Under the pieces are notes generated by a model. The model ran no database searches. It saw nothing but the letters and a program-made list of their open reading frames with translations, and was not told where the DNA came from. A DNA stretch of 21,222 nt from Planctomycetota bacterium (GTDB taxonomy: Bacteria > Planctomycetota > UBA1135 > JALUZX01): positions 1-21,222 of the forward strand of contig JALUZX010000628.1 in assembly GCA_027011425.1 (NCBI GenBank), given 5' to 3'. Positions 2,332-13,599 of the stretch are shown one piece after another; positions within the stretch are counted from its first letter, which is position 1; every line of letters begins with the position of its first letter. A program made the position numbers and the translations under genes.

Positions 2332-4440
2332 TTGGAGTCGGGGATAGGAATGGACTGGCACACCTTCACAACCGTGGACTTCGCCTGGATGCTGGCCATC
2401 CCGGCCCTTCCCCTGGCGGCCTTCGTCATCCAGATCTTCTTCGGGCGCTGGCTTCCGAGGAAGGGGGACTGGGTCCCCACCACGGCCATGGGCTTCGCCC
2501 TGGTCCTGGCGGTGGGGTTCTTTCTCAAGGCCATGGGGATCTTCGATCCCACCCTCTATATCCAAAGTAGTAATCCCCCTCCCGGGGAGACCGGGCTCTC
2601 CCTGGCCTGGCTCTTCGGGAACGCCCCGAGCGGCGCCCCCAACATCGTCTTCAGCGTCCTCTTCGACAACCTGACGGCGGTGATGCTCGTCGTGGTGACC
2701 GGGGTCTCCTTCCTGGTCCACGTCTACTCCATCGGCTACATGGAAGGGGACAAGCGCTACGGCAGGTTCTTCGCCTACCTGGCCCTCTTCTCCTTCTCCA
2801 TGCTGGGCCTGGTGCTCTCGGGCAACCTGCTCTTCCTCATGGTCTTCTGGGAACTCGTGGGACTCACCTCCTACCTGCTCATCGGGTTCTGGTTCGAGAA
2901 GCCTTCCGCCGCCCACGCCGGGTTCAAGGCCTTCATCACCACGAGAATCGGCGACGTGGGGATGCTGCTGGGCTTCCTCATCATCTTCAAGCATTTCCAG
3001 ACCCTGGATATCGTCACGATCTTCCAGAAGCTGGGGGAGACCACGGGCGATTTCCAGCACTGGCCCGGATGGGTGACCGCGGCGGGACTCCTGGTCTTCT
3101 GCGGCGCCGTGGGCAAGTCGGCCCAGTTCCCCCTGCACATCTGGCTTCCCGACGCCATGGAGGGCCCAACCCCGGTCTCGGCCTTGATCCACGCCGCAAC
3201 CATGGTGGCCGCCGGCGTCTACCTGGTCGGCCGGTTCTACCTCTTCTTCTCCCCCTCGGCGCTCCTGGTGATCGCCATGGTGGGTTCCTTCACGGCGCTC
3301 TTCGCGGCGGTCATCGGGGTCTGCCAGTGGGACATCAAGCGGGTCCTGGCCTATTCCACGGTGAGCCAGCTCGGCTACATGATCGCCGCCCTGGGATGCG
3401 GGGCCTACTCGGCCGGGCTCATGCACCTGATGACCCACGCCTGGTTCAAGGCGGGCCTCTTCCTCCAGTCCGGTTCGGTGATCATCGGAATGCACCACGA
3501 ACAGGACATGCGGCACATGGGGGGGCTCCGGAAGAAGATGCCCATCACCTTCTGGACCATGCTGATCTGCACCCTGGCTCTATGCGGGATCCCGCTTTTC
3601 GCGGGCTTCTACAGCAAGGACGCTATCATCGCCGGCGCCATGCACGCCGCCGCCCACGGCGGCCCGGCCCTCTGGCTCTGGTATTTCCCGGCGATCGCCC
3701 TGGTCGTAGCGGCCGGCCTGACCTCCTTCTACATGTTCCGCCTGATCTTCCTCACCTTCTACGGGGAGCCGAGGTCGGAGCACGCCGAGCACGCCCACGA
3801 GACGCCCTGGACCATGACGGTCCCCCTGATGGTCCTGGCGGCCCTGGCGCTGTTTTCCGCCTCCCCCTGGATCTTCAACGGCGACGTCCTGGGCCACCAC
3901 CTCTGGTTCCCCCATGTCGTGGCCCATCCCGAAAAGGTGGAGGCCGGCCGGCTGGTGGTGGAGAAGGCGGCCGAGGAGCACGGCGTCCTTCCCCTGGTCA
4001 TGTCCATCCTCGTGGCCTTGGGCGGCATCTTCCTGGCCTGGGCCTTCTACTACAAGAAGTGGCTCAGCGCCGAGGAATGGGCCCGGAAGATGGGATGGTT
4101 CTATAAGGCCGTATACAACAAGTTCTACGTGGACGAGTTCGTGATGAAGTTCATCGTCCGGCCCGTGGTCTTCCACTGGAACGTGGCCTGCGCCGCCTTC
4201 GACAAGTATGTGATCGACGGGATCGTCAACGCCGTGGGGAGGGGCGGAGTGGAGGCTTCGGAGGGTTCGGGCTGGTTCGACAAGTATGTGATCGACGGAA
4301 TCGTCAACGCCGTGGGATTCACCGTCCAGGTCTTCGGGGGAATCGCCCGGCTCTTTCAGACAGGTTTTCTTGACCAGTATCTGGCCTTTACGGCGGCGGC
4401 GATCGCCCTGGGGGCCGTTCTGTTCTTCTTTTTCCTCTGA
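2332..4440 (+). CDS. nuoL: NADH-quinone oxidoreductase subunit L (antiporter-like); start could instead be the ATG at 2350
   Basis: 702-aa polytopic protein with Mrp-antiporter-like core motifs (WLPDAMEGPTPVSALIHAATMVAAGVYL) and the C-terminal FDKYVIDGIVNAVG motif region. Carries an internal in-frame 78-bp duplication (see repeat feature). Confidence 0.9.
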   Translation: MESGIGMDWHTFTTVDFAWMLAIPALPLAAFVIQIFFGRWLPRKGDWVPTTAMGFALVLAVGFFLKAMGIFDPTLYIQSSNPPPGETGLSLAWLFGNAPSGAPNIVFSVLFDNLTAVMLVVVTGVSFLVHVYSIGYMEGDKRYGRFFAYLALFSFSMLGLVLSGNLLFLMVFWELVGLTSYLLIGFWFEKPSAAHAGFKAFITTRIGDVGMLLGFLIIFKHFQTLDIVTIFQKLGETTGDFQHWPGWVTAAGLLVFCGAVGKSAQFPLHIWLPDAMEGPTPVSALIHAATMVAAGVYLVGRFYLFFSPSALLVIAMVGSFTALFAAVIGVCQWDIKRVLAYSTVSQLGYMIAALGCGAYSAGLMHLMTHAWFKAGLFLQSGSVIIGMHHEQDMRHMGGLRKKMPITFWTMLICTLALCGIPLFAGFYSKDAIIAGAMHAAAHGGPALWLWYFPAIALVVAAGLTSFYMFRLIFLTFYGEPRSEHAEHAHETPWTMTVPLMVLAALALFSASPWIFNGDVLGHHLWFPHVVAHPEKVEAGRLVVEKAAEEHGVLPLVMSILVALGGIFLAWAFYYKKWLSAEEWARKMGWFYKAVYNKFYVDEFVMKFIVRPVVFHWNVACAAFDKYVIDGIVNAVGRGGVEASEGSGWFDKYVIDGIVNAVGFTVQVFGGIARLFQTGFLDQYLAFTAAAIALGAVLFFFFL
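4198..4317 (+). repeat. In-frame tandem duplication inside the nuoL 3' region, period 78 bp; a 42-nt core (ttcgacaagtatgtgatcgacggRatcgtcaacgccgtggg) is present twice, at 4198-4239 and 4276-4317
   Basis: Direct comparison of the two segments gives 41/42 identical nt. They encode FDKYVIDGIVNAVG twice, separated by a Gly-rich linker GRGGVEASEGSGW. Confidence 0.9.
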
Positions 4441-4496
4441 CATCGTGAGGAAAGAGTGGGAACTGTAAACGAGAGCATCGGCAGGAGCTGACCGGA

Positions 4497-6065
4497 ATGC
4501 TTGGAGGAATCTTGAACCAGGTGGCGGGAGGAGAAGGCGGCATCCTTCTCTCGCTGATCACCTTCGTGCCCATCCTGGGGATGCTCGTGATCCTCTTCAT
4601 CCCCAAGAAACAGCACGACATCATCCGGACCATCGCGGGCGTGGCCACGGGAATCCCCTTGGCTCTCTCGATCCTGCTCTGGTTCCTCTTCGATCCGTCC
4701 AAGGGAGGGGCCACGGCGGAGGCCATGCAGTTCGTGGAACGCCACGCCTGGATTCCCACCTTCCACATCCAGTACTACCTGGGCGTGGACGGCCTCAGCG
4801 TCCCCCTGATCTTCCTGAACTGCCTGCTCCTTTTCATCGCCGTTCCTGCCTCGTGGAAGATCGAGAAGGGCGTCAAGGGCTATTTCATGCTCCTTCTCCT
4901 CCTGGAGACGGGCATCACGGGATGCTTCGTGGCCCTGGACTTCTTCCTCTTCTACATCTTCTGGGAACTCATGCTGCTCCCCATGTATTTCCTCATCGGC
5001 ATCTGGGGAGGGCCCAGGCGGGAATACGCGGCGATCAAGTTCTTCCTCTACACCCTGGCCGGCTCGGTCCTCATGCTGGTCGGGCTCGTGGCGGTCTACC
5101 TGATCTCCGCCAAGGAGGGCAACCCCACCTTCGACCTCATGGCGCTGGCCGAGATGGCCAGAAGCGGAAAGCTCGGCGCGAACTGGAGCGTGCTGGGCAT
5201 GGGCTTCAAGACCTGGCTCTTCTGGTTCCTGTTTGTCGCCTTCGCCATCAAGGTGCCCATCGTCCCCTTCCACACGTGGTTGCCCGACGCCCACGTTGAG
5301 GCCCCCACGCCGATCTCCGTGATCCTGGCCGGGATCCTCCTGAAGCTCGGGGGCTACGGGATGCTCAGGATCAACTTCCCCCTGGCCCCCGAAGCGTTCC
5401 GCCGTTTCGCCGTCGTCCTGGCCGTGATCGGGCTGGTGAGCATCGTCTACGGGGCCTTCGTGGCCATGGCCCAGAAGGACTTCAAGAAGCTCGTGGCCTA
5501 CAGCTCGGTGAGTCACATGGGCTACGTCCTCCTGGGATTCGGGTCCCTGGCCCTCCTGGGCTTCGCCGGGGGCGCTTTCCAGATGTTCGCCCACGGCACC
5601 TCGTCGGCCATGATGTTCTTGATCGTGGGCGTTATCTACGACAGGGCCCACCACAGGGACCTGAACCGGTTCGGCGGATTGGGGTCCCGGATGCCCTACT
5701 ACGCCGGCCTCGCCTCGGTGGGTTTCTTCGCGGCCCTGGGCCTTCCCAGCATGTCCGGGTTCGTGGCCGAATTCCTCACGCTGATCGGGGCATACGAGGG
5801 GGACCACACCAGGTGGATGGTGCTCATCGCCATCGTGGGCGTGGTGATCACCGCGGCCTACATCCTCTGGACGATCCAGCGGGTCTTCCTGGGCCCCATG
5901 AAGAACGAGGAATACAAGAAGTTCCCCGACATCAGCCTGCGGGAGGCCATCTGCCAGGCCCCCCTGGGGCTCTTGTGCATCCTTTTCGGCGTTTTGCCCT
6001 TCCTCCTGCTGGACACGATGAGGCCCTCCCTCGAGGGGCTCATGGGCGTTCTCGGGCTCAAGTGA
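4497..6065 (+). CDS. nuoM: NADH-quinone oxidoreductase subunit M (antiporter-like)
   Basis: 522-aa polytopic protein with the NuoM/ND4 pattern (WLPDAHVEAPTPISVILAGILLKLGGYG) in the canonical position. GGCAGGAG lies upstream of the ATG. Confidence 0.9.
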   Translation: MLGGILNQVAGGEGGILLSLITFVPILGMLVILFIPKKQHDIIRTIAGVATGIPLALSILLWFLFDPSKGGATAEAMQFVERHAWIPTFHIQYYLGVDGLSVPLIFLNCLLLFIAVPASWKIEKGVKGYFMLLLLLETGITGCFVALDFFLFYIFWELMLLPMYFLIGIWGGPRREYAAIKFFLYTLAGSVLMLVGLVAVYLISAKEGNPTFDLMALAEMARSGKLGANWSVLGMGFKTWLFWFLFVAFAIKVPIVPFHTWLPDAHVEAPTPISVILAGILLKLGGYGMLRINFPLAPEAFRRFAVVLAVIGLVSIVYGAFVAMAQKDFKKLVAYSSVSHMGYVLLGFGSLALLGFAGGAFQMFAHGTSSAMMFLIVGVIYDRAHHRDLNRFGGLGSRMPYYAGLASVGFFAALGLPSMSGFVAEFLTLIGAYEGDHTRWMVLIAIVGVVITAAYILWTIQRVFLGPMKNEEYKKFPDISLREAICQAPLGLLCILFGVLPFLLLDTMRPSLEGLMGVLGLK

Positions 6066-6080
6066 CGGTAGGGAGAGTCC

Positions 6081-7787
6081 ATGAGTCAGCTTCAGGCATA
6101 CATTAAGGATCTGGGTTGGATCGGGCCGGAACTGGTTCTGGCCGCGACGGCCCTGGTGGTCCTGCTGGTGGAACTCTACCGGCGGGGCCGCAAGTCCGGC
6201 TGGTCCCTGGGGCTGGCCCTGGTGATCACCCTGGCCGCCGGGTTCGGGCTCTCCTGGCTGGGGAGGACTTTCTCGGCCGCCCTGGGAAGGCCCGTGGACC
6301 TGCGCCTGGACGTGGCGGTCCTGGGGCTGGTCTACGTGCTCGTCACCATGGGGGACCTCTGGTTCAAGGGGGACAAGTGGGACCGCCTCGTGCCCGGGCT
6401 GGTGGTCCTGGCCGGGACCCTGCTGGCCGGGTATTACGCCGTGGGCCTCATGTCCGCCCTCTCAGCCGACCCCAAGGGGACGAGCGTCTTCGGGCTCCAG
6501 CTCGTGGACTCCTACTCGGTCTACTTCAAGCTCCTGGCCCTGGTCTCGCTTTTGGTGGTGACCCTTTTCACCATGAACTACCGCGACCTGAAGCGGGGGT
6601 TCGGCGAGTATTACCTCTGCCTTGTGGGCGCCCACCTGGGGATCATGTTTTTGGTGAGCAGCAATCACCTGCTTCTCATCTACCTGGGCCTCGAGACGCT
6701 TTCCTTGAGTTCCTACCTGCTCGCGGGTTTCCGCAAGGAGGATCCCCGCTCCGCCGAGGCGGCGGTGAAATACGTGATCTACGGGGGCGTGGCCAGCGCC
6801 ATCATGCTCTTCGGGTTTTCCCTGATCTTCGGGCTGGGCGGTTCCCTGGACCTGGTGGAGATCGGGCGCCACCTGGCCGGCACGGCCCAGGGGTCCAACC
6901 GGGTGCTCGTAGGCCTGGGCATGGCCTGCACCTTGGGAGGACTCTCCTACAAGATCGCCGCCGTGCCCTTCCACTTCTGGTGTCCCGATGTCTACGAAGG
7001 CGCCCCCACGCCGGTGACGACCTTCCTTGCCGTGGCCAGCAAGGCCGCGGGTTTCGCCGTGATCGTCCGGATCGTGGCCGTCCTGGGGCAGGGCCCGGGA
7101 TGGCTGGAGAAGGTCACCTCGCTCATGGCCGTGGCCTCGGCCTTGAGCATGACCTACGGAAACCTGGGGGCCCTCCACCAGACCAACGTGAAGAGGCTTC
7201 TCGCCTACTCATCGATCGCCCACGTGGGCTACATTCTCATGGCCGTGGCGGCCCTCTTCGGCGCCGCCACCGCGGGGGAGGGTGGGACCTTCCACGTCGA
7301 TCCCAGGGCTGCGGAGTCGATCCTCTACTACTTGGGAGCGTATATGATCATGAACCTCGGCGCCTTCGGCGCGGTCATCTACATCGCCAAGAGCGCCGGT
7401 TCGGAGGACATGGACGACTGGTGGGGCCTGGGGTGGAAACTGCCCGTGGTCTCGGGGGTCCTGGTGATCTTCCTCTTGTCCCTTACGGGAATCCCGCCGA
7501 CGGTGGGGTTCTACGGGAAGTGGCTCCTCTTCCGGACGGCCATCGCCGGGGGGTTCCTCTGGCTCGCCGTATTGGCCGCCGTCAACACGGTGTTTTCCCT
7601 TTTCTATTATTTCAAGGTGGCCAAGGTCCTCTTCCTGAAGCCCGCCGAGGAGAGCCGGGGCGTGACCGTCCGCCCCGCCGCCGTGATGGCCGTGGTCCTG
7701 GTGGCCCTGGGCCTCCTCACCCTCTTCTTCGGAGTCCTGCCCTCCGCCCTGGAAAGCCTGGCCGGCGCCTCCGCCGCGGCCTTGTAG
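6081..7787 (+). CDS. nuoN: NADH-quinone oxidoreductase subunit N (antiporter-like)
   Basis: 568-aa polytopic protein with the NuoN/ND2 pattern (FHFWCPDVYEGAPTPVTTFLAVASKAAGF). A GGGAGAG Shine-Dalgarno lies 6-7 nt before the ATG, and it is the last gene of the canonical nuo order. Confidence 0.9.
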   Translation: MSQLQAYIKDLGWIGPELVLAATALVVLLVELYRRGRKSGWSLGLALVITLAAGFGLSWLGRTFSAALGRPVDLRLDVAVLGLVYVLVTMGDLWFKGDKWDRLVPGLVVLAGTLLAGYYAVGLMSALSADPKGTSVFGLQLVDSYSVYFKLLALVSLLVVTLFTMNYRDLKRGFGEYYLCLVGAHLGIMFLVSSNHLLLIYLGLETLSLSSYLLAGFRKEDPRSAEAAVKYVIYGGVASAIMLFGFSLIFGLGGSLDLVEIGRHLAGTAQGSNRVLVGLGMACTLGGLSYKIAAVPFHFWCPDVYEGAPTPVTTFLAVASKAAGFAVIVRIVAVLGQGPGWLEKVTSLMAVASALSMTYGNLGALHQTNVKRLLAYSSIAHVGYILMAVAALFGAATAGEGGTFHVDPRAAESILYYLGAYMIMNLGAFGAVIYIAKSAGSEDMDDWWGLGWKLPVVSGVLVIFLLSLTGIPPTVGFYGKWLLFRTAIAGGFLWLAVLAAVNTVFSLFYYFKVAKVLFLKPAEESRGVTVRPAAVMAVVLVALGLLTLFFGVLPSALESLAGASAAAL

Positions 7788-7887
7788 GCTTCAGTTGGAC
7801 TGCAGAGGGGAATCCGCCGGCGGTTGATTGGACCGGTGGAAGGAGCTAGCCTCTTATGTGAATCCTCAGGGTCGACAGGAGGCTGAA

Positions 7888-8571
7888 ATGCCTTTCGAAG
7901 AGGTGGAACTGGAGGCCCTATACGGCCCTCTCAACGAAACGGAGAAGAAAAACGCCCCGGCAACCCTTTTCGTGGCCGGGGACAAAGAACTCCTGCGCAG
8001 GGGAAGAAGGGTTTCCGTCGTCGGAACCAGGAAGCCTTCCGAGGAAGGCCGGAAAAGGGCGGAAAGATTCACCCGATTCCTGGTGGAAGAAGGGATCACC
8101 GTGGTGAGCGGGCTTGCCCAGGGCATCGACACCGTCGCCCACTGGACGGCGATCGAGTCGGGAGGGCGAACCATCGCCGTCCTGGGGACGCCCCTGGACA
8201 AGTGCTACCCGGCGAAGAACAGGGAACTACTGGAAAGAATCATGCGGGAACACCTGGCCGTTTCCCAGTTTCCCCCGGGTTCTCCCGGGGGCAGGCGTTG
8301 TTTCCCCATGCGGAACCGTACCATGGCCCTTCTTTCGGACGCTACGGTCATCATCGAGGCGGGGGATGGAAGCGGGACCCTTCACCAGGGGTGGGAAGCT
8401 CTTCGGTTGGGCCGGCTTCTTTTTCTGGCGGAGTCTCTTACCAAAGACCCCTCTGTGAAGTGGCCCGCTGAAATGATCCATTACGGGGCCCAGGTTTTGT
8501 CCGACACAAAACATTTTCTCGACCTTCTCCCCGAGATTGGGCGGAACGAGGTCGCCGATCTTGATTTCTAA
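7888..8571 (+). CDS. DprA/Smf-family Rossmann-fold domain protein (DNA-processing protein A-like, domain-minimal). Likely start is the ATG at 7888 with an AGGAGG Shine-Dalgarno; the ORF track starts it at an upstream TTG (7828)
   Basis: Motifs VVSGLAQGIDTVAH, IAVLGTPLDKCYPAKNRELLERI, FPMRNRTMALLSDATVIIEAGDGSGTLHQG and LRLGRLLF reproduce the conserved blocks of the DprA Rossmann domain (GxARGID..AH; VLGtGlD..YP..N; RNRIiaglS..vVvEA...SGsL). At ~227 aa it has no room for the N-terminal SAM-like or C-terminal winged-helix domains. Confidence 0.7.
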   Translation: MPFEEVELEALYGPLNETEKKNAPATLFVAGDKELLRRGRRVSVVGTRKPSEEGRKRAERFTRFLVEEGITVVSGLAQGIDTVAHWTAIESGGRTIAVLGTPLDKCYPAKNRELLERIMREHLAVSQFPPGSPGGRRCFPMRNRTMALLSDATVIIEAGDGSGTLHQGWEALRLGRLLFLAESLTKDPSVKWPAEMIHYGAQVLSDTKHFLDLLPEIGRNEVADLDF

Positions 8572-9193
8572 GGTCGAATTCGGATCCTTTCTGGTCTATT
8601 CGCCGCGGGGCGTCTCACCTACATCGAAAAAGTCCAGTCGTTTGGTGCGTGCTGTCAAATGCGACCATCCTGGTATTGTGAGAAAAGCGGCGATTGCCTT
8701 AAAAAAGAGCAAGGAGGCTGAGAAGCTGGGCCTCTTCGATTTCTTTCGTGACGCAATCCTCGTTCCCGTTCCCGGTTGTGCGCCGATCAAGAAAGGGTAT
8801 CATTGGCCTGCGTTGCGGATTTGCCAAGAGTTGCAAAATGCAGGCTTGGCAAGGGTCGTTTATCAGGGTTTGGTAAGGGAGCATTCTGTTCCAAAATCCG
8901 CTTACGCCGCCCCTGGGGAAAGGCCCGGGCCAGAGGTGCACGTCCGATCTTTTACTTTCCATGGGATACCCGGGCTCTTTGAAAGAAAAATACTCCTGGT
9001 GGACGATGTCATTACCAAGGGCGCCACATTGCTTGCCGCCGCGACTGTGGTTTTGGAAAGTCCTGTTCCCTTGGATGTTCGTTGTTTCGCCCTGGTGAGG
9101 ACGATGGGACTTGTGCCGGACGTGGAAAAGATCGTCGACCCTTGTGTGGGAACCATCACCTGGGATGGATCGGATGTCCATCGATGGCCTTGA
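8537..9193 (+). CDS. ComF/GntX-type phosphoribosyltransferase (PRTase) domain protein without N-terminal zinc finger. There is no in-frame ATG; start is TTG/GTG (8537, 8561, 8642 or 8645) and uncertain. Overlaps the preceding gene
   Basis: PRPP-binding loop ILLVDDVITKGATLLAAA. The upstream block ILVPVPG...KKGYHWPALRICQELQNAGLARV...VREHSVPKSA and the distal CFALVRT follow the ComF-family layout (VPVP..RGfNqa..LA..l; VLLVDDV.TTGAT; vLaRt). Codon usage is A/T-richer than the flanking genes. Confidence 0.7.
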   Translation: MGGTRSPILISKVEFGSFLVYSPRGVSPTSKKSSRLVRAVKCDHPGIVRKAAIALKKSKEAEKLGLFDFFRDAILVPVPGCAPIKKGYHWPALRICQELQNAGLARVVYQGLVREHSVPKSAYAAPGERPGPEVHVRSFTFHGIPGLFERKILLVDDVITKGATLLAAATVVLESPVPLDVRCFALVRTMGLVPDVEKIVDPCVGTITWDGSDVHRWP

Positions 9194-9236
9194 TCCTCCT
9201 TGGAACTACTTCGGATGGTTGCGGAAGGCCAAAGAA

Positions 9237-9268
9237 AAAGGGGCGGAACGAAGGCGTTCCGCCCCTTT
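9237..9268. terminator. Bidirectional intrinsic-terminator-like hairpin between the convergent genes ending at 9193 (+) and 9303 (-)
   Basis: Perfect inverted repeat aaaGGGGCGGAACG-aagg-CGTTCCGCCCCttt (11-bp GC stem extended by A/T pairs). It is flanked by an A-run on the left (a U-run for the minus-strand transcript) and TTTCC on the right. Confidence 0.5.
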
Positions 9269-9302
9269 CCTCATCCGGAGAGATCCGGCGAGGGCCCGGG
9301 TC

Positions 9303-10394
9303 TCAGTTGTGCCAGAACATCAGGGTGTCGCCCCGCTTTTTCCAGGGACCACTGTTGAAGAGGGGATCGGTGTCGGGGTTCACGCCGCCCGTGTAGTAGC
9401 TGTAGGCCATGGGGACCGGAATGCCGCCCGCGGCAGGGCCGATGATCCCGGTGAAGCAGTTGGAGAGGCCCAGGTTGACGGTGGTCCCTTTGACGTTGAT
9501 CAGGGCGAACTGGGCGTAGACGGGGGTGCCCGCGAAGAAGGCCTGGTTGGGGATGGGCCAGTTGGCCTTGACGGAGGACCCGGTAATCGGAAGGACCTGG
9601 GTCAGGTCGATGCTGCAGTAGATTTTGCATCCCTTGAAGCCCAGGGGGGTGAGGTCGAAGGGAAGGGGAATTCCCGAAAAGTTCTTCAGGCTGGTCCCGA
9701 TCCAGGCGAGGGCCGTTCCGGTCGTGGGGCTGAGGGAGGAAACCCTGGTGTAGAAGGCGCCTCCGACTTTCAACTGGCTGGAAATTCCGTAGATATAGTT
9801 CTTCTTGGCCGGGCAGCCCGCTCCCACGTACCCGGAGAGCCCGCCCGAGGTGGTTCCGTAGAAACGATCACAGTTGTAGGTGGCTATTTTGTTGCCCGTC
9901 TTGTCGTAGTTGCTGACTTCCACCAGGAAGTTTCCACCTTTGTAGGGGAAGGGCCTGTCGAGTTTGTGAATGAGGATGGGCTTCCAGGGATATTGGGGCA
10001 CCGTGACGGCGGGGAGGGAGATGATCCTCTTCCTGAAGACGATCGCGTGGTCTGCTCCCCGGTTGAGCTTGGGGTTCTTGCTCATCGTGGCGGAAGCGGC
10101 CTTGGTGTTGCTCATCTCGATCTGGGTGACGAGTTTCTTTGCGGCATAAGTGGCCGAGTAGCGCCCCTCGTGGCGGAAGGCCACGGCAAAGATGACCTTG
10201 CCGGCGGGAACGCCCATTGCCTTCTTGTCGATCACCTCCTGGTAGAGCATGTTGGTGTCGCGGTAGGGCTTGAAGTGCCAGGAGGAGCCCTCGATGTACT
10301 TGGCCTGCTTGGGCGCCGTGTCCAGAATGCCTTGAGAGAAGGCAAAGCTGGAGAGCCCGGCGAGGGCTAGGGGAAGAAGAATGCGTGCTTTCAT
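9303..10394 (-). CDS. Hypothetical Sec-secreted protein (364 aa) of unrecognised family. Start is the ATG at 10394; the ORF track extends it spuriously to 10742
   Basis: N-terminus MKARILLPLALAGLSSFAFSQG is a classical signal peptide (basic n-region, hydrophobic core, small residues before the cut). AAGGAG lies 6 nt upstream of the ATG. Third-position G/C bias is strong throughout, consistent with genuine coding, and the mature part is Gly/Thr/Ser/Tyr-rich with several Cys. Confidence 0.65.
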   Translation of the reverse strand: MKARILLPLALAGLSSFAFSQGILDTAPKQAKYIEGSSWHFKPYRDTNMLYQEVIDKKAMGVPAGKVIFAVAFRHEGRYSATYAAKKLVTQIEMSNTKAASATMSKNPKLNRGADHAIVFRKRIISLPAVTVPQYPWKPILIHKLDRPFPYKGGNFLVEVSNYDKTGNKIATYNCDRFYGTTSGGLSGYVGAGCPAKKNYIYGISSQLKVGGAFYTRVSSLSPTTGTALAWIGTSLKNFSGIPLPFDLTPLGFKGCKIYCSIDLTQVLPITGSSVKANWPIPNQAFFAGTPVYAQFALINVKGTTVNLGLSNCFTGIIGPAAGGIPVPMAYSYYTGGVNPDTDPLFNSGPWKKRGDTLMFWHN

Positions 10395-10477
10395 AGAGTT
10401 ACTCCTTGCTCTGAATGGGTTGGGGAAGAGTTTAAAAGGAACAGACGCCCGGGCTGGCCCCGGGCTGAAAAGGGATA

Positions 10478-10504
10478 ATTGTAAGACTTTCAGAAGACAT
10501 GCAA
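10478..10504 (-). promoter_or_regulatory. Candidate sigma70-like promoter for the secreted-protein gene (minus strand: TTGCAT - 15 nt - TACAAT)
   Basis: The hexamers were read off the reverse complement of the AT-rich 10395-10560 interval. Spacer is a short 15 nt, and nothing confirms that this organism uses sigma70 consensus promoters. Confidence 0.2.
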
Positions 10505-10596
10505 AGTTCCTTGTTTTTAAAAAATAACTTCCAAGTTTGAGACACTTCAGGTCATGGGACCCCCTGTTCCCCCAGGCCTTGACTCCACCCATGAAT

Positions 10597-10623
10597 CCCC
10601 CTAACCCTGCAGGGGGGCTTTTT
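10597..10623 (+). terminator. Orphan terminator-like hairpin on the + strand (CCCCCT-aaccctgc-AGGGGG followed by CTTTTT)
   Basis: 6-bp GC stem, 8-nt loop and a T5 tail. No + strand gene is upstream, and the orientation is wrong to terminate the minus-strand MNT gene. Confidence 0.3.
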
Positions 10624-10720
10624 GTAAGAAACAAGCAATGGGGCCTGTTCGGTCCGGGATTCGGTGGGTGCTTCGGGACCGGCCCCCGACGTCCCGGGAC
10701 GGGATCAGCGATCCGGGCCT

Positions 10721-11017
10721 TCAGGGAAGCAGGACCTCCCACTTTCCTTCCAGGGCCGCCCGGAAGGAGGGGCTGGTCCGGTGCCAGTCCACCAGGTCCA
10801 CCCGGAAGGGGAGGTCCGATTTGGAAAAGGCGTCTTTCAGGCGCGATAGGACGGCCCGGGGGATCTTGTCTTCCCCCACCAGCAGAAGGTCCAGGTCCGA
10901 ATAGGGCTGGGCCTTCCCTGTCGCCCGTGACCCGAAGACCCGCACTTCCACGCCGTGGAGATGGGCTTTCAGGATCTTCTTTACCAGGTCCATCTCTTCC
11001 GGGGTCAGGTCAATCAT
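10721..11017 (-). CDS. Minimal nucleotidyltransferase (MNT, HI0073-like) domain protein, putative antitoxin. Start taken as the ATG at 11017 (MIDLTPEEM...); an alternative ATG at 11035 would overlap the HEPN gene by 26 nt
   Basis: VRVFGSRATGKAQPYSDLDLLLV is the canonical MNT GS-x9-13-DxD nucleotidyltransferase signature. Size is ~98 aa. Confidence 0.75.
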   Translation of the reverse strand: MIDLTPEEMDLVKKILKAHLHGVEVRVFGSRATGKAQPYSDLDLLLVGEDKIPRAVLSRLKDAFSKSDLPFRVDLVDWHRTSPSFRAALEGKWEVLLP

Positions 11018-11429
11018 TCCTCTCTTCCAGCGCATCCAGGAGAGCCCGGGCGTAATCTTTGAACCGGAGGGCGGCCTGGAAGACTTCTTCCGGCATTTCT
11101 TCGTCGTAGGTGTGGGAGGTGAGATTGCGGGCTTCGTGGAATGCCCACCAGGCTTTCACGTCGTCGACCAGGCGGTTCTCGGCGGCCACCCGGTAGAGAT
11201 CCTTCCGGGAGAGACCGTCCACGTTGGAACTGCCCAGGTTTTTCCGGAGCCATCGGCGGATGAACTTCCAGCAGAGTTCGTAGGTAAACTCGAAATGCTG
11301 GATCACTCCCGCCTGGATTCCTTTCCGGGGGACAGGGTCCAGGGAATCCATGAAGGCCTTGTTCGTTGCTACGGCAAGGAGGTCGTCGAAAGCTGTTATT
11401 GCCTTTTTCAAGCTCGTCAGGTCCAGCAT
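11010..11429 (-). CDS. HEPN-domain protein of the HI0074 / nucleotidyltransferase-substrate-binding family, putative toxin
   Basis: 139 aa carrying ARNLTSHTYDE, which matches the HEPN R-x4-6-H motif. GGAGG lies 6 nt before the ATG, and the gene is immediately adjacent to the MNT gene. Confidence 0.8.
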   Translation of the reverse strand: MLDLTSLKKAITAFDDLLAVATNKAFMDSLDPVPRKGIQAGVIQHFEFTYELCWKFIRRWLRKNLGSSNVDGLSRKDLYRVAAENRLVDDVKAWWAFHEARNLTSHTYDEEMPEEVFQAALRFKDYARALLDALEERND

Positions 11430-11460: not shown

Positions 11461-13599
11461 TCAAATGTCTTCGCCCCTCGTTTCCTCCACGATGGGGTCC
11501 ACGTGGTTCTTCCGGCCCGTGCGGGCGTAGGTATAGAGGAAGAAGCAGAGCAGGATCATGGCGCCGATGGAGATCCATTCCCCCAGGGTCTCCAGGTTCT
11601 TGCCCCGAAGAAGGAAGAGTTGTTTTTTGATCGACTCGAAGACCGGGTAGCCCGTGCTCGAGACCGGGCAGATCCCCCTCTCCCAATCGACGACCAACAC
11701 CGAGCTGGGCCAGGATGCCAGAACGGCGTCCAGGATGCCCACGAGCCCGCCTCCGGCGATGAGGCCCGAGGCGATGAGGATGCCCTTGTCGTGGCCGGCC
11801 TTGGTGGCCTTGGGATCCTCTCCTTCCCGTTTCCGGCCCACGAGGTACGCCACGAAGCCCCCGATCATGACGGGCACGTTGAGCTGGATGGGGAGATACA
11901 TCCCCAGCGCGAAGGCCAGGGCCGGGATCCCCACCATGCGGAGGATCAGGGCGAAGATCACCCCGAGCCCGAAGAGGATCCACCGGATCCCCTGCTCCGG
12001 GTTCTTGCCCATGATCCCCTGGATGATCTCCTTCATGGCGCTGGCCTGGGGCGCGGGGAAATCGGCCGACCCGAAGTGGTTCTTGGAGAGGAGCCACATG
12101 GCCAGGGCGCAGGAAAGGGCGGCCGCCGCTGTTCCCACGAACTTCCAGAGGAGCTGGTTGCGCGGCGTTGCGCCGATCCAGTAGCCGATCTTCAGGTCCG
12201 AACTCAGGGCGCCCGAGGCGGCGAGGGCCGTGCAGACCACGCCTCCCACGATCAGGGCGACAGTCATTCCCTTGGGTCCCGTGAGGCCTATGGAGAGGAA
12301 GACGATGGCCGTGATGATCAGGGTCATCAAGGTCATGCCCGAGACCGGGTTGGTCCCGACCAGCGCGATGGCCCGGGCCGCCACGGGAGCGAAGAGGAAG
12401 GCGATGACCAGCACGATGGCGAGCCCCACCAGGGCCTGGGGAAGGCTGGTGCCCAGGACGAGCCAGAAGAAGCCCAGGGCCAGGGCGGAGAGAAGAACCA
12501 GGCCGATCCCCACTTCCTTCATGGTCAGGGAGCGCATGATCCTGGGAACCCCGCCTCCCTCCTCTCCGTGGTGGCCGAGACCTTTCATGCCGAAGGCGAT
12601 GGAGCGCATCATGGAGGGGAAGGCCGCGATGATCCCGATGATTCCCGCCCCGGCGATGCCACCGATGCCGATCATCCGCACGTAGGATGTGAAGACGTCG
12701 TCGATGGACATGGCCGAGAGAAGCCTGGTCCCAGGGGGCACGATCTGGGTGACGTAGGGGGCGAAGGCGTGCACGAGGGGAATCAGCACGAAGTAACTGA
12801 CGAAGCTCCCGGCGCAGATGATGGCGGCGTACTTGAGCCCGATGATGTAGCCCACGCCGGTGACGGCCGCCAGGTTGCTGATCCGGAGGGTCATGAACTG
12901 GGTCTCCAGGAACCCGCCGATGGTCATGAGCTTGCCCTGGGCGTCGTGGAGGAAGGGGATGGGCACGCTCTTGAAGTCGATCAGGTCCCGGAAGGCGTGG
13001 AGGGTCTGGCCGCAGAACTCGTAGAATCCGCCGAGAAGGGTGGAGATCACCAGCACCAGGGCCTGGCCGCTGGTCCCTTCGCTGGAGACCAGGATCTCCG
13101 TGGTGGCCGTGGCCTCGGGCCAGGGGAGCAGGCCGTGTTGTTCGGCCATGAAGTAGTGCCTGAGCGGCGTGAAGAAGAGAATGCCGTAGGAGCCGCCCAG
13201 GAATGCCGTGAGGGCCGTGACGTACCAGGATGGCGGAATCCCCAGCATGTAGAGGGCCGGGATGGTGAAGACCGCGCCCGCCACGACGTGGGAGGAGTTG
13301 GCCCCGATGGACTGGATGATCACGTTTTCCAGGATGGAACTCTTCCTGGAGTAGAATTTTCCCATCCCGATGGCCAGGATGGAGATGGGAATGGCCGCCT
13401 CGATGCCCTGGCCCACCTTGAGGGCCAGGTAGGCCGCCACCAGGGAGAAGAGCACCGTCATGGCGAGCCCGGTGACCACCGAGCGCAGGGTGATCTCGGG
13501 GAGGGTCGACTCCGTGGGGATCAAGGGCCGGTAGACTTCGCCGGGCTTCAGGGGGGTCTTCGCGTTGTCGGGAAGGCGGAATCCTTGGGTCTCCGTCAC
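11461..13599 (-). CDS. OPT-family oligopeptide transporter (bacterial OPT superfamily), GTG start preceded by AGGAGG
   Basis: 712-aa protein with many TM segments. The N-terminal block ITLRSVVTGLAMTVLFSLVAAYLALKVGQGIEAAIPISILAIGM resembles the conserved start of bacterial OPT transporters (TLRAvilG...LGLKVG.t..AsIPaAV). Confidence 0.65.
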   Translation of the reverse strand: MTETQGFRLPDNAKTPLKPGEVYRPLIPTESTLPEITLRSVVTGLAMTVLFSLVAAYLALKVGQGIEAAIPISILAIGMGKFYSRKSSILENVIIQSIGANSSHVVAGAVFTIPALYMLGIPPSWYVTALTAFLGGSYGILFFTPLRHYFMAEQHGLLPWPEATATTEILVSSEGTSGQALVLVISTLLGGFYEFCGQTLHAFRDLIDFKSVPIPFLHDAQGKLMTIGGFLETQFMTLRISNLAAVTGVGYIIGLKYAAIICAGSFVSYFVLIPLVHAFAPYVTQIVPPGTRLLSAMSIDDVFTSYVRMIGIGGIAGAGIIGIIAAFPSMMRSIAFGMKGLGHHGEEGGGVPRIMRSLTMKEVGIGLVLLSALALGFFWLVLGTSLPQALVGLAIVLVIAFLFAPVAARAIALVGTNPVSGMTLMTLIITAIVFLSIGLTGPKGMTVALIVGGVVCTALAASGALSSDLKIGYWIGATPRNQLLWKFVGTAAAALSCALAMWLLSKNHFGSADFPAPQASAMKEIIQGIMGKNPEQGIRWILFGLGVIFALILRMVGIPALAFALGMYLPIQLNVPVMIGGFVAYLVGRKREGEDPKATKAGHDKGILIASGLIAGGGLVGILDAVLASWPSSVLVVDWERGICPVSSTGYPVFESIKKQLFLLRGKNLETLGEWISIGAMILLCFFLYTYARTGRKNHVDPIVEETRGEDI

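Follow-up and report, generated by a model that had tools for sequence, protein, structure and literature searches.

Which system, if any of the known ones, is encoded by two overlapping genes of a Planctomycetota bacterium, of which the first specifies a DprA-like protein and the second a stand-alone phosphoribosyltransferase (PRTase)? The two genes lie in contig JALUZX010000628.1 of assembly GCA_027011425.1, whose positions 1 to 21,222 (21,222 nt) were analysed as a whole and are referred to here as the window. The original prediction, which was made from the sequence alone, regarded the pair as a candidate undescribed two-gene module. From our analysis we conclude that it is a compact, horizontally acquired variant of the already described ShosTA family and not a new kind of system, and we consider it probable that it acts as a compact type IV toxin-antitoxin (TA) and abortive-infection module of the ShosTA kind, composed of a toxin dependent on phosphoribosyl pyrophosphate (PRPP) and an antitoxin which consists of a DprA core and binds single-stranded DNA (ssDNA). 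What is observed for the pair itself comprises its family membership according to hidden Markov models (HMMs), the folds, the key residues, the pairing and gene order, the mobility and the variability of the locus.

ShosTA has been published as a type IV TA and abortive-infection system with roles in phage defence and plasmid maintenance; it was first presented as a TA pair, and its anti-phage role was shown later (Rousset 2022, PMC9122126; Millman 2022, preprint 10.1101/2022.05.11.491447). Both window proteins are recognised by the general PADLOC models of this family. The DprA-like protein matched the ShosA model PDLC03961 with an E-value of 1.3e-73 (245.9 bits, profile positions 90-289 of 303) and, in addition, the E. 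coli-specific ShosA model PDLC02997 (E 5e-17). The PRTase matched the ShosT model PDLC03962 with an E-value of 4e-13 (profile positions 77-199 of 237), and no match to the E. coli-specific ShosT model PDLC03012 was obtained. The general ShosT model also detected 30 of 30 diverse PRTase homologues that were aligned, with a best E-value of 4.4e-24. To check the PADLOC models, we recovered the Escherichia coli ShosTA reference from the P2-like phage 10W, whose ShosA reached 284 bits with PDLC03961 and whose ShosT reached 180 bits with PDLC03962, the E. coli-specific models matching as well. The view of the pair as an undescribed module can therefore not be upheld, since both proteins match existing models by which the validated E. 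coli system is recognised as well, and no new kind of system is added. Two-gene modules of a DprA-like protein and a PRTase have indeed been published as ShosTA and PsyrTA (PMC9122126; 10.1101/2022.05.11.491447; Pu 2025, PMC11961720; Yang 2026, PMC12961424), while the Makarova and Koonin reviews do not mention such a pair.

The first gene had been proposed to encode the Rossmann domain of DprA only, which our results confirm. Pfam DNA_processg_A (PF02481) covers residues 37-224 of the 247-aa open reading frame with an E-value of 2.6e-55, and the AlphaFold2 (AF2) model, which has a predicted local distance difference test (pLDDT) value of 91.8, forms one Rossmann domain. With some 15 residues ahead of the fold and some 25 behind it, the chain has no remainder for a SAM or a winged-helix domain; the N-terminal SAM domain of ShosA (residues 1-94) is absent, and profile position 90 is the first that the HMM match covers. 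The model fits the Rossmann domains of Streptococcus pneumoniae and Helicobacter pylori DprA with template modelling (TM) scores of 0.79-0.84, and Foldseek retrieved S. pneumoniae DprA (3uqz, TMq 0.80), H. pylori DprA (4ljk, TMt 0.84) and E. coli ShosA (8zva, TMq 0.74). E. coli ShosA is a DprA-like dimer which neutralises without binding the toxin, namely via ssDNA binding, for which R139 and R234 are used, and via recruitment of RecA (PMC11961720, PMC12961424). The two arginines correspond to R48 and R142 of the window protein, which are invariant in 124 of 124 members of the short DprA family in the alignment from which residue conservation was read, and R261, which is dispensable in E. coli ShosA, corresponds to W169. 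The reduced size is common to the relatives, as the best 120 homologues have lengths of 222-271 aa.

For the second gene, a ComF-like PRTase fold with an intact PRPP loop and without the four-cysteine zinc finger had been expected, and AF2, Foldseek and the sequence agree with this on all three points. The AF2 model (pLDDT 94.6) shows a PRTase fold with the whole chain in one domain, and among known structures it fits H. pylori ComF and E. coli ShosT best, with ComF being the closest. It was the fold that brought up the link to both proteins, and the link to ShosT also emerged from the general PADLOC model; the match to Pfam Pribosyltran stayed below the threshold (22.5 bits, cut-off 26.3). 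No cluster of four cysteines is found in the N-terminus, the first 70 residues of which contain one cysteine. E. coli ShosT is a PRPP-binding PRTase and its D331A/D332A mutant is non-toxic (PMC11961720, PMC12961424). Using hhalign, the PRPP loop of the window PRTase was paired with ShosT residues 320-350, and D148/D149 align with the toxicity-essential D331/D332. The loop sequence VDDVITKG is invariant in the PRTase family, which includes D148, D149, T152 and G154 (alignment A1), and further family invariants (R106, S113, R121, H127 and, nearly so, K112) are located in the loop region that would correspond to the other PRPP ligands of E. coli ShosT, i.e. H204/H240, K280 and R285. The N-terminal pyrophosphatase-like hydrolase domain of ShosT (residues 1-164), which has a marginal share in the toxicity of the E. 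coli protein (PMC11961720), is absent, and the window PRTase has half the length of E. coli ShosT. A search with the PRTase yielded 865 proteins at E ≤0.001, of which the best 120 are nearly all 198-232 aa long; in the phage database, no homologue of the compact PRTase was found.

The arrangement of the genes agrees with the family as well. In ShosTA of E. coli (APEC O1/KTE181, from a P2-like prophage hotspot; structures 8ZVA-8ZVD and 9VZO), the A gene precedes the T gene, as in the window, and both systems consist of two adjacent, co-oriented genes in one operon with a mobile and variable context. Besides the general HMMs, the E. coli and the window pair share the DD motif and the two ssDNA-binding arginines, whereas they differ in that the SAM domain of the ShosA-like and the pyrophosphatase-like domain of the ShosT-like protein are lacking in the window. 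The most plausible start of the shosA-like gene is ATG 7888, with AGGAGG five bases upstream, while the mechanical reading frame reaches back to TTG 7828 (247 aa). For the shosT-like gene, TTG 8561 is the start annotated in the source ENA contig k141_463170 and is preceded by GAGG at 8548-8551, about 9 nt upstream; the alternative TTG 8537 would give a protein of 218 aa and fits the stretch of 5-9 residues by which homologues extend beyond the conserved LLSEVxFG motif at their N-terminus. With either start the genes overlap to the extent initially proposed, which implies translational coupling, and in most loci of the DprA type the two genes likewise overlap or nearly abut (−7 to +36 nt). Upstream, the pair follows the end of the nuo operon (nuoN stop at 7787); downstream lie genes for a secreted protein of 363 aa to which no function is assigned, a pair of the nucleotidyltransferase (MNT)/HEPN type, an OPT transporter, a nucleoside diphosphate kinase (NDK) and a phosphoenolpyruvate carboxykinase (PEPCK). 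A terminator hairpin separates the PRTase gene from the convergent gene for the 363-aa protein and forms the right boundary of the variable segment. A promoter scan upstream of the DprA-like gene identified none, with the limit that the host may not use sigma-70 consensus promoters, and, regarding signatures of integration, the locus contains no tRNA gene and no convincing flanking direct repeats.

Table 1 Features of the compact pair in the window and of related loci with a different gene content.
Sequence	Feature	Coordinates	Strand	Remarks
Window	Shine-Dalgarno-like AGGAGG	7877..7882	+	5 nt before the shosA-like ATG; read from sequence
Window	shosA-like gene	7888..8571	+	227 aa, single-domain DprA Rossmann-fold protein, predicted antitoxin/ssDNA binder
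Window	Gene overlap	8537..8571	+	11 nt (start 8561) or 35 nt (start 8537)
Window	shosT-like gene	8561..9193	+	210 aa, stand-alone PRTase, predicted PRPP-dependent toxin
Window	PRPP-binding loop ILLVDDVITKGAT	8990..9028	+	D148/D149 at nt 9002-9007
Window	Perfect 14-nt inverted repeat	9237..9268		A/T runs on both sides; bidirectional terminator
L021	Coupling protein (T4CP)	2843-4300
L021	Small Cys protein	4334-4852
L021	MobA/MobL	4858-5973
L021	PRTase	6001-6630
L006	Three-gene locus	5304-7899		Haloferula sargassicola NBRC 104335; long ShosT of 419 aa, PDLC03012 E 4.7e-69
L050	Three-gene locus	5337-7804		Planctomycetota metagenome-assembled genome; long ShosT of 378 aa, PDLC03962 E 1.7e-44

If the pair operates in the same way as ShosTA, the 210-aa ShosT-like PRTase would be the toxin, whose DD loop would bind PRPP and which would use or consume it, so that nucleotide metabolism would be harmed and, as a consequence, the integrity of the DNA damaged. 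The 227-aa ShosA-like protein would be the antitoxin and would not sequester the toxin; instead, it would bind ssDNA via the conserved arginines of its GTR and RNR motifs and promote recombinational repair, which would offset the damage. The antitoxin would be translated first, with the toxin coupled to it through the overlapping start, and a loss of antitoxin supply or a titration of the antitoxin by ssDNA, as might happen when a phage infects the cell or the element is lost, would set the toxin free. In this scheme, the toxicity and its dependence on PRPP, the neutralisation through ssDNA and RecA, and what triggers the system are drawn from the E. coli system only, for which transcription shut-off and possibly phage ssDNA have been described as triggers (PMC11961720, PMC12961424).

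Next to the HMM matches, composition and variability of the locus indicate that the pair was acquired. The GC content at third codon positions (GC3) is 0.555 in the PRTase gene and 0.702 in the DprA-like gene, compared to 0.86-0.92 in nuoI-N and the OPT, NDK, PEPCK and aminotransferase genes, and AAA/AAG codons were counted as 7/8 in the PRTase gene and 0/23 in nuoL, which agrees with the earlier remark that the codon usage of the PRTase gene is unlike that of its neighbours. The DprA-like protein is nearest to proteins of Planctomycetota (66-71% identity); PEPCK of the host is nearest to FCB-type candidate phyla with 60-64% identity, and none of its named relatives exceeds 64%. In another sample, a contig (L094) is collinear with window positions 7581-10606 at 94.9% nucleotide identity and carries an intact DprA gene (99% amino acid identity), while a change from GGG to GG at window positions 8793-8795 (about 1208-1217 in L094) frameshifts the PRTase gene only, which could be a real inactivation of the toxin or an assembly error. 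In a related metagenome-assembled genome (MAG; GCA_027057615.1, L090), whose sequence between the aminotransferase and the MNT gene, both included, is 95% identical, the similarity to the window ends exactly at the terminator hairpin (window 9240), and the remaining 230 nt of the contig past this junction contain no PRTase. Another locus (L097, 5001-5678) has an orphan short DprA gene of 225 aa with neither a PRTase gene nor a remnant of it within 5 kb. The loss of the toxin and the presence/absence variation fit a mobile TA module and not housekeeping competence genes. Between the MNT and the 363-aa genes, L090 furthermore harbors an extra pair of thioredoxin and DUF302 genes (12140-13196) that is absent from the window (about 10604-10715), and the 363-aa gene is 85% identical in L090 while its flanks are 95% identical; on account of this extra pair and of the divergence of the 363-aa gene, the stretch from nuoN to the OPT gene can be regarded as a small variation hotspot.

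The survey for adjacent genes of a short DprA and a short PRTase, which had been suggested along with the original prediction, did find such pairs. One genome per species was scanned, 383 stretches with a relative of the PRTase were confirmed, of which the best 80 served as the loci for comparison. In 32 of the 80 loci according to a first tally, and in 33 according to a second one, the PRTase gene is directly preceded by a gene for a short DprA with the same overlap. These loci span at least eight phyla or classes, with pairs in Planctomycetota, Verrucomicrobiota, Holophagales, Eisenbacteria, Myxococcota, Bdellovibrionales, Gemmatimonadota and Alpha- and Betaproteobacteria. In metagenomes, the neighbours differ from site to site and include a NACHT protein, transposases, a PIN/DUF433 pair and, at one locus, an MmeI-like restriction-modification (RM) gene together with SNF2 and HNH genes. 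On plasmids from cultured bacteria, the pair directly follows repA-parA (Paracoccus p7), adjoins repB (Allochromatium vinosum pALVIN01) or comes after a recombinase (Chryseobacterium), which are classic positions of addiction modules. A PADLOC scan of the 105 nearest neighbour proteins in 30 loci gave several defence hits, among them BrxC, LmuB, GajA, a type I methyltransferase and RosmerTA-like peptidases. We conclude that the pair is mobile and does not represent housekeeping competence genes, because it occurs in many phyla, on plasmids and beside RM- and BREX-type neighbours and is frameshifted or absent in close relatives. The proposal of an acquired, self-contained unit with a role in conflict or defence biology thus gains support from the variable locus, the atypical GC3, the plasmids and the ShosA/ShosT matches. 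Two side observations concern other copies of the compact pair. About 1.2 kb downstream of the pair on the Chryseobacterium plasmid p1 (L088), genes for a SLATT-domain protein and a nucleotidyltransferase lie on the same strand (5840-7170), and this neighbourhood suggests a small defence cluster. Secondly, a 33.8-kb contig of an Eiseniibacteriota MAG (CBDCYW010000006.1; L014 and L015) contains two compact pairs about 21 kb apart with identical DprA match statistics, one of which is cut by the contig end, so that the module is either duplicated or repeated by the assembly.

Several points weigh against the assignment of the pair to ShosTA function. The accessory domains of both E. coli proteins are missing from the window pair, and E. 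coli ShosA lost stability when its SAM domain was deleted (PMC12961424). The residues by which ShosA contacts RecA (K200, R206) are not conserved and are replaced by A109 and L115, as are its dimer residues L144, L181, F182 and L275, at whose positions E53, E90, S91 and S183 are found. The dimerization modes of DprA vary among species, and the RecA of the host differs from that of E. coli. Judged from the residues, the functional core of the pair looks intact, while the details of partner recruitment in E. coli do not appear to be transferable. Regarding the PRTase, the ShosT model gives a moderate match only (47.8 bits over 52% of the profile), hhalign of the PRTase family profile with E. coli ShosT covered 31 columns at 16% probability, and sequence and profile searches of the PDB returned the generic PRPP loop of APRT, OPRT and PyrR and neither ShosT nor ComF. 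By sequence, the window PRTase is thus very distant from the sole characterised ShosT, the likeness being confined to the PRPP loop. The counts of defence genes among the neighbours were obtained without a control set and are supportive only. Finally, 46-48 of the 80 loci carry PRTases with 38-43% identity to the window PRTase and no DprA gene within 6 kb, and this DprA-free sister clade implies that the PRTase need not always have a DprA partner.

These DprA-free PRTases (L016, L018, L021, L022, L024, L026, L028-L031 and about 38 more) are mostly encoded in MAGs of Steroidobacteraceae and other Gammaproteobacteria, and 46 of 46 fall into one clade that is sister to the window PRTase. Their gene directly follows a MobA/MobL relaxase gene and overlaps with its end, and upstream of the relaxase gene a TrwB-type coupling protein (T4CP) is encoded. 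A conserved open reading frame of about 190 aa without a Pfam hit was observed downstream of the PRTase gene, e.g. in L021 (7612-8187). That solo ComFC-like PRTases occur in conjugative elements has been noted before (Iyer et al. 2017, PMC5512222). A further arrangement was found in two loci (L006 and L050), in which a short DprA gene and a compact PRTase gene are directly followed by the gene of a long, two-domain ShosT of the E. coli type, and from this gene order we conclude that one antitoxin-like gene is combined with two different PRTases.

The DprA-free clade, the three-gene loci and ComF as the best structural match keep alive the view that the PRTase works with ssDNA, either in place of poisoning nucleotide pools or in addition to it. 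In the stronger form of this view, the compact PRTase would be a protein of the ComFC type which acts on or with ssDNA and does not poison the purine pool, and ShosTA would be a captured and weaponised DprA-ComFC pair. One PRTase lineage has come to be used in three settings, namely in DprA pairs, in relaxase/T4CP transfer modules and, together with a long ShosT, in three-gene loci. We regard this as a speculative, rather unlikely extension; if true, the family would go back to a core like the minimal pair of the window, which would then give the easiest access to the PRTase substrate.

A similarly doubtful explanation, and one that we rate as unlikely, dispenses with the TA function altogether: the pair would be an accessory of mobile elements for ssDNA handling, in which a PRTase resembling ComFC would work together with a DprA core, after the manner of ComFC and DprA in natural transformation, so that incoming ssDNA is protected, processed or recombined, e.g. 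when a plasmid or an integrative and conjugative element is established after transfer. However, the window copy is chromosomal and no transfer or uptake genes are present in the 21 kb. Moreover, the plasmids that bear the pair were typed as non-mobilizable, with the pair located near rep/par and other TA genes. The ComF model TIGR00201 gave only 20.7 bits compared to a cut-off of 233.55, restricted to the last 38 profile positions, and the ComF zinc finger is absent, whereas the ShosT model matched all members of the PRTase family tested. The frameshift that one close relative has in its toxin gene only, as well as the DprA gene that stands alone elsewhere, fit the decay of a TA module. PRTases that have been described as occurring singly in conjugative elements and in phages (Iyer et al. 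2017, PMC5512222), like the PRTase effectors of retrons and Ophion, resemble the window PRTase in being stand-alone, ComFC-like and found in mobile elements, but they have no DprA partner, whereas the window PRTase has one and lacks transfer genes.

Still less probable, in our estimation, is a mechanistically distinct PRPP-dependent defence system which merely resembles ShosTA and in which the DprA core serves as a sensor and not as an antitoxin, while the PRTase makes a signalling or modified nucleotide or phosphoribosylates DNA. The PRTase is equally far from E. coli ShosT and ComF, the acceptor substrate is still unknown for every defence PRTase (PMC12961424), and the compact PRTase and the long ShosT behind one DprA gene in two loci may be non-redundant, all of which would suit such a system; yet the pair is not accompanied by any further conserved gene for an effector or a receptor, and it fits both the two-component logic and the HMMs of ShosTA. 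The PsyrTA (RqlHI) system is a further relative with a DprA-like antitoxin (the PsyrA model matched the window protein with an E-value of 1.7e-27) and a PRTase-containing toxin. It differs in the fusion of a RecQ-like helicase to the PRTase, which the window PRTase lacks, and the PsyrT model PDLC03928 matched the latter with an E-value of 0.051 over profile positions 643-684 of 689 only, i.e. the last 40 residues or so.

That the genes are the housekeeping or decaying dprA and comFC competence genes of the lineage, for which the domain families would be the right ones, is very improbable, since the scores stay below the curated cut-offs (DprA-like protein: 164.8 bits with TIGR00732 dprA, cut-off 191.15, and 127 with NF008007, cut-off 495; PRTase: far below that of ComF), GC3 is 0.56-0.70 compared to about 0.9 in host genes, plasmids and other phyla harbour the nearest homologues, relatives whose flanking genes are 95% identical either lack the pair at the site or carry it with a frameshift, and dozens of invariant residues are kept across hundreds of equally short homologues, which argues for a selected architecture and not for products of decay. 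In line with this, the pair does not behave as the sole, syntenically conserved orthologues of a lineage with ordinary codon usage would, because close relatives differ at the locus and the codons are used in an atypical way, and the alternative of decayed competence genes, which had been offered along with the original prediction, is disfavoured. The domain composition differs in the same way: competence DprA (S. pneumoniae, 3UQZ) combines a SAM with a Rossmann domain (and DML1/winged-helix), whereas the window protein consists of the Rossmann domain only and scores below the equivalog cut-offs, and the zinc-finger N-terminus of ComFC (H. pylori ComF, 7P0H) is absent from the window PRTase, which stays below the family cut-off although its fold is closest to this protein. 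In contrast to competence genes, pairs of the window type are adjacent, overlapping, plasmid-borne and patchy in their distribution.

As a variant of ShosTA, the window pair drops both accessory domains of the sole characterised system and keeps the residues of known importance, which suggests that a DprA Rossmann domain and a PRTase domain form the minimal working core of ShosTA. The compact PRTase offers a smaller protein in which the PRTase acceptor can be sought, and its structural closeness to ComFC links ShosTA evolutionarily to the DprA-ComFC pair of transformation. The relaxase-linked clade and the three-gene loci point to a modular reuse of the compact PRTase.

Two neighbours on the right side of the pair were considered as parts of the module and rejected, i.e. 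the 363-aa gene and the MNT/HEPN pair, because they are not conserved beside the pair elsewhere and are also present in L090, which lacks the PRTase at the junction. The 363-aa protein (window 9303-10394, minus strand, convergent with the PRTase gene) has an N-terminus that resembles a signal peptide (MKARILLPLALAGLSSFAFSQG) and no match in Pfam, NCBIfam or PADLOC. The MNT/HEPN pair (window 10721-11429, minus strand) consists of overlapping genes for a nucleotidyltransferase, which is MntA-like with 34.6 bits and thus below the cut-off of 60, and a substrate-binding subunit of the HI0074/HEPN type (70.4 bits, above the cut-off). It resembles a type VII MNT/HEPN TA system, has a GC3 of 0.74-0.81 and is kept in L090.

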